From a virus: a stretch of DNA of 18,811 bases. The first letter of the stretch is position 1. Every line of letters begins with the position of its first letter. The DNA is taken from the UHGV virus genome UHGV-0168127; one strand, written 5' to 3'. Under the pieces are notes generated by a model. It did no database searches and had not been told where the DNA came from. It saw nothing but the letters and a program-made list of their open reading frames with translations. A program made the translations under genes and the position numbers. Positions 1,024-6,952 of this stretch are shown here, piece by piece.

Positions 1024-1581
1024 TCATCGTCGTCGTACTCCAATGCGGCTATATAGACGAGAATAAGAAATCCCTGACATTACAATGCCATCCGAAACAA
1101 CAATAATGTCACCCGTTTCTTCCGGCATTCGCTCACTACAGCTTATCCAACCATCCGGAATTACCGGAGAGTTGCCGGGTTCTTTAATGTGCAAGCGAGG
1201 CTCACCATCTTTTGGCTCAGGCCACTGGCGCTCCATGTTGATCTTCAATTTATTTTCCATAGCAGCGGTAATTTCAGCATCACTGATACCAGCACGGCGC
1301 TGTGCATCCCACAACAGGAACTGCATATCAGCCCACTCGCTGAGATCGTCAGGTTCGGCTGCGGCTTCCAGTGCCTCTTTTGAGAGGTGTTTCAGTGGAC
1401 CAATGGGGCCAACGCAGCCAAATGTGGAGTCAGACCATTTGGCATGCTCGTGGCGAATCTGTTCGCGTTCCAGTGATGCCAGTGCAATTCGTGCCAGTTC
1501 CATTTGTTCGCCACGAGTAAGCCCGTTTTCAAGCGGATTTTTAATGAATAATTCGATACGTTCTTTGGTAATAGTGGTCAT
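1024..1581 (-). CDS. DUF551-like phage protein (185 aa)
   Basis: N-terminal ELARIALASLE region shared with the ORF at 15747..16454; C-terminal PDGWISCSERMPEE motif typical of the DUF551 family found in ea regions of enterobacterial prophages. Confidence 0.5.
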   Translation of the reverse strand: MTTITKERIELFIKNPLENGLTRGEQMELARIALASLEREQIRHEHAKWSDSTFGCVGPIGPLKHLSKEALEAAAEPDDLSEWADMQFLLWDAQRRAGISDAEITAAMENKLKINMERQWPEPKDGEPRLHIKEPGNSPVIPDGWISCSERMPEETGDIIVVSDGIVMSGISYSRLYSRIGVRRR

Positions 1582-1776: not shown

Positions 1777-2493
1777 TCACTCTCCTTTGATGCGAATGCC
1801 AGCGGAGCGGATTGCAGCGATGACTTCAGAAACTTTGTATGCCATTACCGTTTGGTAATCCTCGTGGAAATCTGTTCGATGAAGCATGCTGCTACGTTCC
1901 GGGAGCAGTATTTCCCGCGCTTCCAGTTCTGCAATGCGCTTCTCTGCGGCTTCCAGCTTCTCGCGCATATCGTCAACGTACTCGACCAGAGAACCGCCAG
2001 CAGGAATTTCGCACTCATCGACCAGTTGGAAGTAGATATCAGCTGCGGCCCGTGTGTTGCTATGCCTAGCGTCGCCCATCTCACCTTCACGAAGAGCATC
2101 GCGTTCGGCGGTAAGATTGGCTATTTTGCTGTCTTTGCCTTCCAGCTCAACGCGCAGCTTCCCTACCGTTAGCGCAATATCCTCGTTCTCCTGGTCGCGT
2201 GATTTGATGTATTGCTGGTTTCTTTCCCGTTCATCCAGTAGTGCCAGCACGGTAGCCGGATTGGCTGCGGCGATGAATTCAGCATTGGCCTGCTGTTCTA
2301 TTTGGAAATCTTCATCGAAACCGCTTTCTGTATGCGCTCCTTCAATTCTGAAAATGGGAATATATCCAGCAGCCTCGCGATGAATTAGCACATCATCACC
2401 ATCAAATCGGCCCTCTCCATATTCGAGCGACCACACACCACACGTTGCTTTCTCTGCCTTTTCACGCAGTGCCTGATAGTCAATCTTGCTCAC
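1777..2493 (-). CDS. Ead/Ea22-like family protein (about 238 aa, GTG start overlapping the upstream stop)
   Basis: Track ORF trimmed to the GTG at 2493 (GTGA overlap with the stop of the 2490..3176 gene). N-terminal [15 protein letters not shown] and ANPATVLALLDE motifs are paralogous to the ORF at 15177..15545. Confidence 0.5.
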   Translation of the reverse strand: MSKIDYQALREKAEKATCGVWSLEYGEGRFDGDDVLIHREAAGYIPIFRIEGAHTESGFDEDFQIEQQANAEFIAAANPATVLALLDERERNQQYIKSRDQENEDIALTVGKLRVELEGKDSKIANLTAERDALREGEMGDARHSNTRAAADIYFQLVDECEIPAGGSLVEYVDDMREKLEAAEKRIAELEAREILLPERSSMLHRTDFHEDYQTVMAYKVSEVIAAIRSAGIRIKGE

Positions 2494-3176
2494 TGGTTGC
2501 CTCCTTTGCGAAGCTCTGCGGCGAAATATTCGGCTCTTTTTACGCATTCTTCATAAGCAGCTGCATCAGCAACATCCTCATCAATTAGAGTAAAATCTCG
2601 CTCACCTCTACACCACTGTGCAAACATCTCCACACCCTGCGACCGCACTTCAGCTAGGAAGGCGTCGGTGGCTGGGGTTTTGACAACAATGCTGTCACGC
2701 AGGATGAAGAAAGCATTGAGCATCCCTGTTTCCGGAATTTCAGCAGAATTAAAAGCATCTATCGCCAAGTCCATACTTGGACCAAGTGGCTGCGGATGTG
2801 CGCTTCGCAGAATCTCTTGCTCAGTGATTAGTGCTTGAATCTTTTCCACCAAGTCTGATGGCGAGACATCATCTGCGTCTTCCTGGAAGCCAAGCGCTGA
2901 ACGCACCGCCCGAGATTCAGACATTCTTTGGTATGCCTGTCCTGCTGACATGGAGTAGCGACCATTCTCCGCAGACAGCGCAGCGCACTTGGCCTCAAGG
3001 TTATCAATCGTGATTCCAGCAGAACGACACTCCAGCAACGCTGTTTCCAGTTTTGATTCGAGTTCACCGAACTTACGGACAAGATATTCAGCGTTTGTTT
3101 CGTTAACCTTTAAATCACTTGGGATGCATTTACCTTTAAGAAATCCATCCATCTCAATTAGTGACATTTGTTTCAT
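2490..3176 (-). CDS. Ea22-like protein (228 aa)
   Basis: Shares [11 protein letters not shown] and [12 protein letters not shown] motifs with the + strand ORF 13970..14584; position matches ea22 of lambdoid phages. Confidence 0.55.
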
Positions 3177-3679: not shown

Positions 3680-4168
3680 TTATTTGATAAGAAGTGAAGG
3701 TTTCCCAACTTTGAGTTGAGCGCCGGGGATATTTATTCCTGCTTTTAGTTGGTGTTTGATTGCCAGTTTGTCGGCTTTAATTGTCGTTTCAAACTCAACG
3801 TATTCAGGAGGAATGGCGCTTGCGTCGATGATTTCTACAATTTCTGACGGTTTGCGGATTGTTACCTGGTGAATACCTGCTCGAATATTTTTCTTGCCAA
3901 CCATTTCAAGCGATGACGCTATATATGATTTGATGCTGTCAATCTTATTTTGGATTACTGCGGCTCGCTCATTCAGTGACTTTGCCTCTTCCTTGAGGCG
4001 TTCAGCATAACCAGATTCATTTTTAATAATGGCAAGAAGTTGCTCTATTTTATCGGTAAATTCTCCTTCCATGCCTTCTATTGTGTCAGCAATCATCTCT
4101 GGTTCTAAATCTGAATCCATCAATTTTGCGTATTCATTGGCAATTTCATACAGTTTGCTCACTGGCAA
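3680..4168 (-). CDS. Siphovirus Gp157-family protein (162 aa)
   Basis: Length and acidic N-terminal helix followed by a K-rich coiled coil match the Gp157 family; overlaps and is co-oriented with the RecT gene as in other RecT modules. Confidence 0.65.
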   Translation of the reverse strand: MPVSKLYEIANEYAKLMDSDLEPEMIADTIEGMEGEFTDKIEQLLAIIKNESGYAERLKEEAKSLNERAAVIQNKIDSIKSYIASSLEMVGKKNIRAGIHQVTIRKPSEIVEIIDASAIPPEYVEFETTIKADKLAIKHQLKAGINIPGAQLKVGKPSLLIK

Positions 4169-5057
4169 CCTCCAGTTTCGCTTTGCATTCTATGTAAATG
4201 GCTTGTACGTTCTGCTGCAATTTCATTCCAGATGTCAGGCGATATGCTTCTGCAAAATATCGCTTCAAATCATCCATGTTTTCTGCCTGAGCCATTTCAT
4301 CGCAAAGAAGTTGTGCTTTATCCATTATTTCCTGCTGGCGTTTCCGTTCATCTTCGCGGATATCTTCCTCTGATTTGTGCGGCATAACTGGTTCGGTCCA
4401 CACGCCTTCTTCTTCGTTTAGTACGTGAATAGCACTATCAAGGCGTGATGCCTTAGGCCAATACTTGCTTGCACGCTTTACGACTGTCTTTCGCGCCATC
4501 TCATTCCAGTGATTTACCCATGGTCCTTTATCGCTGAATGCCGCCTTGCTTGTTTTCCTTACAGCCTCAATTTCAGCCAGACTCATCTCTTCCGTTAGAT
4601 AATCACCTGCTGGCGTCTTAACTGTGCAGTAAACGCCAACGATATCACCACGGTCACCGAAGGCGTTGTATTTATGGGTTGGTGCTTTATCAAGCCCGTT
4701 TGACTCATAGGTATCGTTAGCATGAACAAGTTTTGCCTGACCCCATGAGATAACACCAGACTCCATTGCAATATGGAGCAATCCCATATAGCTGATATCA
4801 AGGCACACCATGCCGTCGCGAGGAACCAGATAAGCCAGTTTGCTGGCCGGGTTTAAGGTGATGCCGATCGCCGCAACATTGATGATGGCGTTCTGTGCGC
4901 TGGTTGGATTTGCCAGTGCTGTTTTAGCCAGGTAATCGTTTTTCTGGAAATACTGAATTGCAAACTGGCTTTCCTTAGCCCATGTCACCGTCTGTTCAGT
5001 CAATGCTCCGCAGAATAACTGCTCCTGCTGTTTAACGAATTCAACGATATTGCTCAT
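4146..5057 (-). CDS. recT: RecT-family single-strand annealing recombinase (303 aa)
   Basis: GPWVNHWNEMARKTVVKRASKYWP closely resembles the conserved RecT segment GPWVTHWEEMAKKTAIRRLFKYLP; gene sits where lambda has bet. Confidence 0.8.
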   Translation of the reverse strand: MSNIVEFVKQQEQLFCGALTEQTVTWAKESQFAIQYFQKNDYLAKTALANPTSAQNAIINVAAIGITLNPASKLAYLVPRDGMVCLDISYMGLLHIAMESGVISWGQAKLVHANDTYESNGLDKAPTHKYNAFGDRGDIVGVYCTVKTPAGDYLTEEMSLAEIEAVRKTSKAAFSDKGPWVNHWNEMARKTVVKRASKYWPKASRLDSAIHVLNEEEGVWTEPVMPHKSEEDIREDERKRQQEIMDKAQLLCDEMAQAENMDDLKRYFAEAYRLTSGMKLQQNVQAIYIECKAKLEVASEQTV

Positions 5058-5365
5058 GCAGCTTCTCCAAAAATGTGTCTGCGTTTGAATATTGCGAAGG
5101 CATATTCAGCCTTAACTCTTTCGGTTATTGCATCCCAGAACCATTCAGCGGCTTTTTCCTGATAGTTACAGTCATCATCTTCCAGCCAGTCGATAGCGTC
5201 CTTAGTGTGTTCATCTGGTTTATATGAGCGAAGCATTTCGCTTATTGGGTCGCAACGTTTGCAGAGGCGATCAACTTCACTGTTGATTCGTTCGTAATCT
5301 TCATCAGTAAAACTTGCGATTATTTGCGATATTTCACGCTTATCATTCAGAGTCAGAATCATCAT
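5054..5365 (-). CDS. Hypothetical acidic protein (103 aa) at the gam position
   Basis: Start overlaps the small-ORF cluster upstream and its stop overlaps the recT start (ATGA); acidic C-terminal half; no family recognised. Confidence 0.45.
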   Translation of the reverse strand: MMILTLNDKREISQIIASFTDEDYERINSEVDRLCKRCDPISEMLRSYKPDEHTKDAIDWLEDDDCNYQEKAAEWFWDAITERVKAEYAFAIFKRRHIFGEAA

Positions 5366-5446
5366 CTTTCTCCTGTTCTTTGTGCTGATTGAGCATTTTG
5401 TTCATCTGACGAATGAATTCTTCGTCTGACCAGTTATCTGTAAAAC

Positions 5447-5599
5447 TCATTTCCTGCGATACCACGGAAGGTTGATAGCTGATTTCATCGCTTTATTTGC
5501 TTCAAGCCACATTTTTGAATCACCAATAAATCGGGCTATTACTGCTTTGTTCTGTGCTGCACGAAGCATCTGGTGATTGATGGCTATTTCATTGCGCAT
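5447..5599 (-). CDS. kil: Kil-like small protein (50 aa), putative host cell-division inhibitor
   Basis: Manual ORF MRNEIAINHQMLRAAQNKAVIARFIGDSKMWLEANKAMKSAINLPWYRRK; overlaps the 3' end of cIII as kil does in lambda; the IA.FIGD..M segment matches my recollection of lambda Kil (TIATFIGDEKMF). Confidence 0.45.
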   Translation of the reverse strand: MRNEIAINHQMLRAAQNKAVIARFIGDSKMWLEANKAMKSAINLPWYRRK

Positions 5600-5715
5600 A
5601 ATAAGACCTCAACTCTTTTCCATCCGTCACGTAATTTACGGGTGATTCGTTCAAGTAAAGATTCATTTAGTTGGAAGGCACCCATGCGAGCGCCTCCCGC
5701 GATTGCGTAAATCAT
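5584..5715 (-). CDS. cIII: CIII-like protein (43 aa), putative FtsH inhibitor
   Basis: Manual ORF MIYAIAGGARMGAFQLNESLLERITRKLRDGWKRVEVLLCAMK with AAGGAA RBS; ESLLERITRKLRDGWKR matches the conserved core of lambda CIII as I recall it. Confidence 0.65.
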   Translation of the reverse strand: MIYAIAGGARMGAFQLNESLLERITRKLRDGWKRVEVLLCAMK

Positions 5716-5739: not shown

Positions 5740-6741
5740 TTAGTAGGTTATTTTTGTTGCGAATACTTCGCCTTTTACGATGGCTGTTATGATATTTTTA
5801 GCAACATCTTCTGATGCGCCAACCTTGATAAGGTCAGCAAGTATTTTGTTATTTACTTCTTTCCGGTGAGCTTTATCCTTTGCTCTACGCTCTTCTTCGT
5901 CCTTGATTCTTTTTTCTTCTGCTATTCTGGCTTGCTCTTTTGCTTCAGCCTCGCGCAGGATTCGTTCTGCCTCCTCCTGTGCTTTACGGCGTTCTGCTTC
6001 AATTGCCGCATGCTTTTCTCTTTCAGCTCGTTCTGCTGCCTCTTTTGCTTCGCGCTGTGCTCGTTGCTCGGCTTCAATGCGTTCACGCTCTGCACGTTCC
6101 GCTGCGGCCTTAGCTTCTGCTTCACGGCGCGCTGCGGCTTCAATCTCTGCTTTGTGCTTCGCTTCGGCATCGCGTCGGGCTTGCTCTGCCGCTTCACTCT
6201 TAATGCGCTCTTCATGCTCACGTTGAGCCTGTTCCGCCTGGCGGCGCTGCTCTTCGCGGTCACGGTCGAAATCCTTGTTCATCAGCAGAGCCATTTCGTG
6301 GTCTGCTTCGAACTTGGCCGCCAACTCCTGATCGAACTTGATGTTCATTTCCAGCGCTTCGGCGTGCAACGCGTTCATGGCTTCTTCAGCCTTAATGCGC
6401 TCCTGCTCGGCTTCCCATTCGGTGAGTGGGCGGCGGGTGGCATCACGTAGCTCGTCGCAGGCATCAACGAAACGCTTAATTTCCGCCTCAGCGGGGCGCA
6501 CAGCCTCTTTCAGGCGCTTCAGGTACTCACGCCCCGGCTTTTCGATTGCCGTCTTGCTGCGCGACACCTGCGCCGCCAGAGAGGCGACACGGTCACGGCC
6601 TTTCTTCGTTGACAGGTCCGGCACTTCGTTTACTGCCTGGCGGATTTGCTCGAGGTAAGCGTCAAGGCCGCCCGCTACGTAAAGCGCTGGCGCCTGCTCC
6701 GGCGTGATTTCGATGACAGTTAAGTCCATTACTTCGCTCAT
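5740..6741 (-). CDS. Coiled-coil protein (about 333 aa) with a long E/A/R/K-rich repetitive C-terminal half
   Basis: Track ORF 5740..6849 trimmed to the ATG at 6741 (AGGAGA RBS), because the upstream part is occupied by another small gene; low-complexity charged repeats generate the many shadow ORFs on both strands in 5866..6658. Confidence 0.55.
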   Translation of the reverse strand: MSEVMDLTVIEITPEQAPALYVAGGLDAYLEQIRQAVNEVPDLSTKKGRDRVASLAAQVSRSKTAIEKPGREYLKRLKEAVRPAEAEIKRFVDACDELRDATRRPLTEWEAEQERIKAEEAMNALHAEALEMNIKFDQELAAKFEADHEMALLMNKDFDRDREEQRRQAEQAQREHEERIKSEAAEQARRDAEAKHKAEIEAAARREAEAKAAAERAERERIEAEQRAQREAKEAAERAEREKHAAIEAERRKAQEEAERILREAEAKEQARIAEEKRIKDEEERRAKDKAHRKEVNNKILADLIKVGASEDVAKNIITAIVKGEVFATKITY

Positions 6742-6811
6742 GGTTTCTCCTGAAATTTGGATGTGCAGATCCCGCCCGCTTTTAGCCAGGCCGATCGGTT
6801 GAATAGGGGAA

Positions 6812-6952
6812 TTAGGCTGTTTTTCTATGCCACGGATAACCGATGGCAACCTTCATTTCGTCGTAGGCTGCCATCCACATGGCGCCATCACCGATAAACA
6901 GGGCAATGGCTGCTTTGCTCTGCGCGGCGCGCAGCAGGTGATGATTGATCAT
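6812..6952 (-). CDS. Kil-like paralog (46 aa)
   Basis: Manual ORF MINHHLLRAAQSKAAIALFIGDGAMWMAAYDEMKVAIGYPWHRKTA; start overlaps the upstream stop (ATGA); clearly paralogous to the ORF at 5447..5599. Confidence 0.4.
   Translation of the reverse strand: MINHHLLRAAQSKAAIALFIGDGAMWMAAYDEMKVAIGYPWHRKTA

Follow-up and report, generated by a model that had tools for sequence, protein, structure and literature searches.

The window analysed here is a stretch of 18,811 nucleotides (nt) from the viral genome UHGV-0168127, and our subject is one gene on its minus strand, at positions 5740..6741, whose product of 333 amino acids (aa) was described in the initial annotation as a large coiled-coil protein of unknown function. 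Below, the gene is assigned by its sequence to the family of phage phi80 Agt, whose members are usually found at recombination modules. The open reading frame (ORF) is intact and real, as had been claimed: it begins with an ATG behind a good ribosome-binding site and lies upstream of cIII (5584..5715). The mechanical ORF list extends the frame to a TTG start at 6849, an extension that overlaps the upstream kil-like ORF, and real use of this start is unlikely. The parts of the gene and its product are listed with the evidence for each.

5740..6741, minus strand: Agt-family gene, 333 aa, with a TAA stop at 5740-5742 (ORF list, sequence, PHROG 1376)
6747..6751, minus strand: ribosome-binding site AGGAG, 5 nt before the ATG at 6741 (read from the sequence)
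6379..6741, minus strand: N-terminal domain, aa 1-121, helical hairpin (family alignments, AlphaFold2)
6247..6378, minus strand: amphipathic start of the long helix, aa 122-165, 29% hydrophobic (close-relative alignment, model)
5866..6246, minus strand: ER/K-type charged helix, aa 166-292, putative single alpha-helix spacer (composition, charge pairs, model)
5743..5865, minus strand: basic C-terminal domain, aa 293-333, isoelectric point 9.2 (alignment of 62 diverse members, hidden Markov model (HMM))
6090..6170, minus strand: mosaic crossover zone (sliding-window nucleotide identity, protein alignment)

Identity and mosaic origin of the gene

A tblastn search against phage genomes found aa 1-158 to be 98% identical to PHI80_40 (AFV29176) of phi80, and the identity to phi80 Agt stays at about 98% over approximately the first 205 aa. 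The GenBank note on PHI80_40 reads 'agt: anti-toxin for Gam; Mog (modifier of Gam)'. GenBank gives the phi80 order as agt, then gamL, recT and exo, and describes gamL as 'host RecBCD/SbcCD enzymes inhibitor; toxic without Mog'. An end-to-end alignment gives the window protein 83% identity to phi80 Agt and 69% to Sf6 gp33. The profile of PHROG 1376, which takes in phi80 Agt, Sf6 gp33 and D3 Orf53 and has no function assigned there, aligns residues 1-333 to its positions 1-362 with an E value of 4e-110; relatives in this group also come from the P22-/HK97-like phages mEp043, mEp213, mEp234, HK544, HK633, CUS-3 and HF4s. Judged by sequence, architecture and location together, the window protein is a member of the Agt family (PHROG 1376). 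To call its function unknown was therefore too strong, since the N-terminal two-thirds are nearly identical to a protein annotated as anti-toxin and modifier of GamL. Homology to a characterised family is present in part, through phi80 Agt, and a relation to an SMC or scaffold family was not seen.

The similarity to phi80 does not extend to the end of the gene. The last 130 aa or so are of the Sf6 gp33 type, aa ~210-333 matching gp33 bar a few substitutions, whereas the N-terminal domain is only about 40% identical to the Sf6 type. At the nucleotide level, the region from the ribosome-binding site to about nt 630 of the gene is 85-100% identical to phi80, and beyond that point, cIII and kil included, the match is to Sf6 with 95-100% identity. 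Read from these alignments, the gene is a recombinant of a phi80-type 5′ part and an Sf6-type 3′ part, with the switch inside ER/K-coding DNA common to both parents. A crossover within the gene between a phi80-like and an Sf6-like phage would also explain why kil-family genes lie on either side of it. The parental-type genes encode 322 aa in both phi80 and Sf6. ER/K-coding DNA that is common to different lineages can thus serve as a recombination joint at which N- and C-terminal domains are swapped between phages.

The window protein has the three-part architecture of phi80 Agt and nearly its length, and the two genes are alike in running leftward from pL, downstream of a kil-type gene and ahead of recT. 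They differ in the C-terminal third including the C-terminal domain, which is of the Sf6 gp33 type in the window, in the ER/K stretch, which is 11 aa longer there, and in what comes next: gamL directly follows agt in phi80, whereas in the window cIII and kil come next, together with a 103-aa ORF from a different family. The likeness to Sf6 gp33 lies in the C-terminal part and in the slot directly before cIII in enteric phages, and that to D3 Orf53 in the same slot, directly before ERF. The genes that follow differ again, being Erf, SSB and Abc2 in Sf6, ERF and YqaJ in D3, and RecT and Gp157 in the window. We know of no published function for Sf6 gp33, D3 Orf53 and their kin.

The identical 333-aa protein is encoded on at least 10 public contigs. 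Five public loci that we examined have one gene order (kil-like, Agt-like gene, cIII, kil, 102-103-aa ORF, RecT, Gp157) and differ from each other in their immunity regions. Among complete E. coli genomes, a full-length copy was found solely in strain G3/10, with 94% identity.

The family as a whole is large. A search with the N-terminal domain returned 4,158 clusters (50% identity) at E<=1e-3 and 1,095 at E<=1e-10. Matches in cultured phages amounted to 166-184 records, nearly all from temperate phages of Proteobacteria, with Pseudomonas, Vibrio, Escherichia, Klebsiella, Erwinia, Yersinia and others as hosts. No model of Pfam, NCBIfam or PADLOC matches the window protein, no Pfam family is consistently found in 62 diverse members, and NCBIfam has a model for GamL and none for Agt. 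In RefSeq and phage records, homologues are named TolA or 'cell envelope biogenesis protein', and also 'fibrinogen binding protein' or 'ribosome recycling factor'; such names are composition artefacts. A search of the literature on Agt, GamL and TolA-like prophage genes found no functional study, and the family appears to be backed by a single genetic study.

Architecture of the protein and composition of its DNA

The domains were delimited in two alignments, in which the window protein was combined with 22 close relatives and with 61 diverse ones. The N-terminal domain carries the motif VPD..T.KGR..S.A...SK...G..LK...D...P..WE, in which D42, T45, G48, R49, S54, K63, G70, K78, D96, R103 and P105 are near-invariant. 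In the amphipathic segment that follows, the motif ADHEMALLMN.FDR (aa 145-160) is nearly invariant in the 23-sequence close-relative alignment, where 21 sequences are full length. The C-terminal domain conforms to the pattern H(R/K)..(V/I)N...L...G.....A..i.aI..G.....I.Y, and the protein stops at the Y. When HMMs of the end domains were run over 475 family sequences, the C-terminal domain was found in 321. In the window protein the HMM bounds put the end of the N-terminal domain at aa 121 and the start of the C-terminal domain at aa 290, leaving a linker of 168 aa. Linkers in the 313 unique proteins that have both end domains are 5-280 aa long, and 76% of their residues are E/A/R/K/Q/D; the median is 168 aa, exactly the length in the window. 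Given this range, conservation centres on the end domains, between which the helix serves as a spacer of variable length. The initial annotation had pictured a globular N-terminus followed by about 170 charged residues; that length agrees with the linker, and the picture of a charged tail misses the C-terminal domain, which is found family-wide.

The charged stretch at aa 166-292 consists of E, A, R and K to 81%, or 90% when Q and D are counted; hydrophobic residues account for 6%, and the net charge is -2. Hydrophobic periodicity at 3.5 and 7 residues has a power near zero. Opposite charges at i,i+4 form 43 pairs, compared with 20 +/- 3.4 in shuffled sequences, and none of 2000 shuffles reached 43. 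The AlphaFold2 model is all-helical with a mean pLDDT (predicted local distance difference test) of 84; it has a hairpin of two helices (aa 46-76 and 82-165) and a single unbroken helix at aa 174-306 (pLDDT 93-98), for which a rise of 0.15 nm per residue predicts a length of about 20 nm. ER/K single alpha-helix (SAH) linkers are known from myosin VI, myosin X and caldesmon. The window stretch resembles these linkers in the dominance of E, R, K and A, in having about twice the chance number of opposite-charge i,i+4 pairs, in its almost complete lack of a hydrophobic seam, and in forming one predicted unbroken helix between two small domains. It differs in being richer in Ala than a classic SAH, and its monomeric state is a prediction. 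The stretch is thus a putative ER/K single alpha-helix, which fits the model and the composition better than a coiled coil. The coiled coil of the initial annotation is doubtful, as there is no heptad signal, few residues are hydrophobic and i,i+4 charge pairs are in excess. To our knowledge, SAH spacers have seldom been described in phage proteins.

Other identities suggested by composition or position were examined and rejected. The protein is not TolA: it has no N-terminal anchor, no domain III and no TolA match in Pfam or NCBIfam. The likeness is to TolA domain II, which likewise forms a long helix with much Ala, Glu and Lys, hence the TolA labels in the databases; the window protein differs in being phage-borne and cytoplasmic, without a membrane anchor or the TolA C-terminal domain. 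A Kyte-Doolittle scan in 19-aa windows found no transmembrane segment or signal peptide, the N-terminus included, the highest hydropathy being 1.03 at aa 304-322. A canonical coiled coil or SMC-like protein is not supported: SMC domains and heptad periodicity are lacking, and fold searches returned generic bundles. Foldseek with the AlphaFold2 model found nothing in the PDB at E<=1e-3, the BFVD gave two matches only, which are likely family members, and a profile search of PDB sequences yielded nothing below E 0.1. A relation to lambda Ea10 is rejected (probability 0.05% by hhalign of the diverse family alignment against Ea10), the two having the same slot only. A likeness of the C-terminal domain to the UBA or RuvA-domain-III fold was unsupported by Pfam scans of isolated C-terminal domains of 10 members, which gave no consistent match.

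The first impression from the sequence, homology to DUF1351 (PF07083), found no support. Neither the window protein nor any of 62 members matches DUF1351 at the gathering score, and the best sub-threshold match among 10 diverse N-terminal domains had an E value of 0.05 and 13.8 bits against a cut-off of 27.8. An hhalign comparison of the family with DUF1351 gave a probability of 1.5%, with the DUF1351 side being a narrow alignment of Enterococcus-phage sequences only, seeded from an Enterococcus phage protein (PMC12590732, OP018674), which could miss a very remote relation. Lactobacillus phage A2 carries Mu Gam, not DUF1351.

The DNA under the charged stretch was said to be biased, GC-rich and repetitive at 5870..6250 and to create several shadow ORFs. 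The bias is there: on the coding strand the ER/K stretch has 7% T and 70% purine. Any stop codon on either strand requires a T in the coding strand, and because T is scarce, stops are rare in all six frames; this accounts for the four shadow ORFs of 57-194 aa in the ORF list, at 5866..6450 (plus strand), 5903..6226 (plus), 5922..6263 (minus) and 5940..6113 (plus), all of which are present as claimed. The repeats are not borne out. Tandem Repeats Finder reported under the charged stretch just one trifling 21-nt array, and direct repeats there are 20-37 nt long with matches of only 64-82%; the DNA has a compositional bias, not repeat units. Nor is the high GC limited to 5870..6250, the content being 52-61% across the whole gene, N-terminal domain included. 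Purine-rich, T-poor coding DNA of this kind produces misleading shadow ORFs, by which gene callers may be led astray. Beside the gene, no promoter or terminator signals above chance were found.

The locus and the position of the family at recombination modules

The Agt-like gene sits in the early-left operon, in the slot that ea10 holds in the lambda order N-sieB-ral-ea10-cIII-kil-gam-bet-exo, and the lambda region assigned to it earlier, upstream of cIII, is upheld. The neighbours in the window are as follows.

6812..6952, minus strand: Kil-family ORF, 46 aa, upstream neighbour (phrog_2055, E 7e-22; PF06301 Lambda_Kil in identical public loci)
5584..5715, minus strand: cIII, downstream neighbour (phrog_550, E 2e-20; PF02061)
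5447..5599, minus strand: second kil, 50 aa (phrog_2055, E 1e-35; PF06301)
5343..5465, minus strand: 40-aa ORF (similar to phrog_17766 and phrog_2123, 'recombinase', over the first 20-32 profile positions only)
5054..5365, minus strand: 103-aa acidic ORF of the u101/u103 family (phrog_3486)
4146..5057, minus strand: RecT single-strand annealing protein, the core of the module (Pfam RecT, E 4e-32)
3680..4168, minus strand: Siphovirus Gp157-family protein, downstream of recT (PF05565, E 1e-37)

The 40-aa ORF may be a remnant of HK97 gp42/42.1 or a small gene related to it; public gene calls place a 35-aa ORF at roughly the same position. The module seems to have no exonuclease, as recT is followed by the Gp157 gene and then by small ORFs of unknown nature, and most related loci pair the recombinase with a nuclease of the YqaJ, DUF3799 or lambda-Exo type. 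Further along, the early-left operon holds an Ead/Ea22-like protein (1777..2547, minus strand) and a dATP/dGTP pyrophosphohydrolase with a DUF551 fragment (1024..1581, minus strand).

We surveyed the position of the family in two samples of loci. The viral sample comprised 120 IMG/VR stretches retrieved with a degenerate DNA pattern for KTAVEKPGR, and it is biased to one sub-branch of the family; downstream ORFs on the same strand were called and clustered, cluster representatives were named by Pfam, and 79 loci had at least 2.5 kb downstream. ERF, RecT, YqaJ or a DUF3799/PDDEXK exonuclease was encoded within the first three downstream ORFs at 75 of the 79 loci, a recombination gene was directly adjacent at 42, and the median gap to the first downstream ORF was 7 nt. 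The second sample consisted of 55 loci from species-representative genomes with a wider range of sequences and hosts. Here 50 loci had enough flank, and RecT, ERF, Rad52 or Sak4-like AAA_24 was found at 39 of them, usually together with an exonuclease or SSB. Single phages illustrate the orders: Orf53, ERF and YqaJ in D3; Agt-like gene, RecE-like exonuclease, unnamed ORF and SSB in Vibrio phage 1.036.O; Agt-like gene, cIII, Erf and SSB in Yersinia phage vB_YenM_06.16-1; and gp33, cIII, kil, Erf, SSB and Abc2 in Sf6. Across these samples, the Agt-like gene is the usual head gene of recombination modules, whatever the family of the recombinase or exonuclease.

A comparable arrangement has been described in Firmicutes phages, where Mu Gam, DUF2483, DUF1351 or Gp157 is encoded upstream of erf or sak4, and an analogous function was proposed by the authors (PMC8093625). 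These pre-recombinase proteins share with the Agt family the position upstream of ERF, Sak4 or RecT, and DUF1351 is also largely helical and charged. They differ in that no homology is detectable, and the true Gp157 of the window lies downstream of recT.

The partner of Agt in phi80, GamL, shows a looser association. Among 17 genome loci whose N-terminal domain is at least 89% identical to that of the window protein, 8 have GamL right downstream with a 7-nt gap, and the remaining loci lead into Rad52, ERF or Sak4 modules. The 94%-identical copy in E. coli G3/10 is accompanied by Rad52, HNH, SSB and Abc2 and by neither GamL nor u103. GamL itself occurs in 129 phage records, 62 of which are Stx2a phages, and the GamL of phage TL-2011c (3259..3782 of the stretch examined) is 74% identical to that of phi80. 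The pairing of Agt and GamL seen in phi80 is optional in both directions. If GamL is toxic alone, phages that have GamL without Agt must control it otherwise.

Where a small gene separates the Agt-like gene from the exonuclease, it encodes either a GamL homologue (blastp 4e-10 to phi80 GamL) or a member of the u101/u103 family. The u101 and u103 proteins are homologous branches of one family of acidic proteins of about 100 aa (hhalign probability 95%), and the 103-aa ORF of the window belongs to the u103 branch. At 24 of the 79 viral loci, a u101 or u103 member directly follows the Agt-like gene and precedes the exonuclease, the slot of phi80 GamL. The 103-aa ORF was rejected as a Gam or GamL homologue, the hhalign probability of the u103 family against a GamL/Gam alignment being 3%; BLASTP aligned it with GamL at E 0.1 and, over a 21-aa patch, with lambda Gam at E 0.004. 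The single-sequence AlphaFold2 model of this ORF had a pLDDT of 52, too poor for a fold search. By its genomic position, the u103-family protein is a candidate for an alternative nuclease inhibitor.

Possible roles of the Agt-like protein

We propose, with a probability of roughly 0.45, that the Agt-like protein assists the recombination and anti-nuclease module as an accessory factor and tunes how the phage copes with host DNA-end nucleases. Its membership of the family was established above, and the mechanism that we infer would run as follows. The protein would act in the cytoplasm as an elongated adaptor, with two functional end domains that bind two things and the ER/K single helix as a semi-rigid spacer of about 20 nm between them. 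Such an adaptor may alter how the host enzymes that attack double-strand ends (RecBCD, SbcCD) are handled by the phage, be it through binding to a phage inhibitor or through a direct effect on a host target or DNA end. In phi80, gamL is reportedly toxic to E. coli and cannot be cloned, agt, which is nearby, is said to be its antidote and apparent modifier, and phi80 lysogens reportedly behave like recD and sbcCD mutants, a picture more in keeping with a modulator than with a simple inhibitor; the effect would show there in that Agt makes the inhibitor GamL less toxic. In the window, the likeliest partners would be the host machinery and/or the 103-aa protein in the GamL slot before recT.

A wider version of this proposal is a good deal more speculative, and we regard it as doubtful. 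Recombination modules in temperate Proteobacteria phages might generally include Agt-like proteins as a component not recognised so far. With two heads on an ER/K 'ruler', the adaptor would link something in the host (RecBCD, SbcCD, SSB, the replisome or DNA ends) with the end-processing machinery of the phage, be its recombinase RecT, ERF, Rad52 or Sak4. The antidote effect on GamL would then be one manifestation, and u101/u103 could be a new class of Gam-like nuclease inhibitors.

Several observations weigh against an accessory role in recombination. At 11 of the 50 genome loci there was no recognisable recombination gene nearby, most of these exceptions being remote, with 35-48% identity, and located in non-enteric metagenome-assembled genomes, and in enteric phages cIII and kil intervene between the Agt-like gene and the recombination genes. 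No gamL was found in the window by tblastn with GamL, despite the close match of the N-terminal domain to phi80 Agt, and N-terminal domains that are 97-98% identical precede GamL-RecT, Rad52, ERF or Sak4 modules alike, so that no specific phage partner stands out. Conversely, TL-2011c has GamL without an Agt-family gene, downstream of kil and an unrelated 73-aa ORF, and no Stx2a record is among the Agt matches, which suggests the same for those phages. The single-helix state is a prediction only, and the fold search proposed in the initial annotation turned up no specific fold, only generic helical bundles. A biochemical function is known for no member of the family, and Zheng et al. (2025; PMC12315714), in the part consulted here, do not name the protein as a component of lambdoid Rec modules. 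Types of N-terminal domain do not track those of any phage partner, which either speaks for a host target or DNA or just mirrors modular shuffling.

The way phi80 agt is annotated, and its position next to gamL, would also suit an antitoxin or modifier dedicated to a single cognate inhibitor, a small protein acting on nucleases; in the window this would be the 103-aa ORF, bound and partly neutralised so that RecBCD/SbcCD is modified and not abolished. GamL directly downstream at 8 of the 17 close genome loci, u101/u103 in that position at 24 of the 79 viral ones, and the use of one slot by u103, u101 and GamL all point in this direction. However, about half of the viral loci run straight from the Agt-like gene into ERF or RecT with no small protein between, the G3/10 copy has no candidate partner of either family, and GamL does without Agt in TL-2011c and presumably in many Stx2a phages. 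In addition, u103 has no detectable homology to GamL or Gam, and in the window cIII, kil and the 40-aa ORF separate the two genes, so that a strictly cognate antitoxin is unlikely. The indifference of the N-terminal domain to the phage recombinase, pointing to a host target, would be compatible too with an anti-defence protein, or a decoy, directed against immunity that senses recombination intermediates or DNA ends, with the helix possibly disturbing an SMC- or Rad50-like nuclease. The gene lies in the early-left accessory region, home of ral and anti-RecBCD genes, is highly mosaic and variable in length, and the phi80 GamL annotation includes inhibition of SbcCD. Yet PADLOC gave no match and we found no link in the literature; the linker is near neutral and so is not a DNA mimic; and members with essentially no linker exist, so the helix cannot be the active part. 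We consider an anti-defence role quite improbable.

A role in host takeover outside recombination, acting on the envelope, cell division or proteolysis together with kil and cIII, would agree with the kil-like, cIII and kil genes that flank the gene, with the TolA names in RefSeq and phage records, and with the composition resembling TolA domain II. The protein, however, has no transmembrane segment, signal peptide, TolA domain or other Pfam or NCBIfam domain, and in Pseudomonas and Vibrio phages, where cIII and kil are absent, the gene still abuts ERF or an exonuclease, which leaves this role with slim prospects. Least credible of all is that the gene is non-functional, a low-complexity open frame or a decaying recombination fusion. 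It is indeed a chimera with its junction in low-complexity DNA, and several shadow ORFs overlap it, but the frame is unbroken behind a ribosome-binding site, the exact protein recurs on the public contigs counted above, both end domains are kept in hundreds of diverse members, and the parental-type genes of phi80 and Sf6 are of nearly the same length.

The initial observation is thus confirmed in part, and its interpretation has partial support. To a known and barely studied family the window gene adds a new, mosaic member, mechanistically holding nothing surprising as yet; it is an ordinary member, with nothing unique to the locus, and its value is as a lead at the level of the family. The points that matter at that level are the position at the head of modules across RecT, ERF, Rad52 and Sak4-like systems, the spacer of 5-280 aa, the optional link to GamL, and a second family of small proteins in the GamL slot. 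The Agt family is a testable candidate for how temperate phages tune, and do not simply block, the host RecBCD and SbcCD nucleases, with a bearing on phage replication, prophage-mediated lysogenic conversion and recombineering tools.

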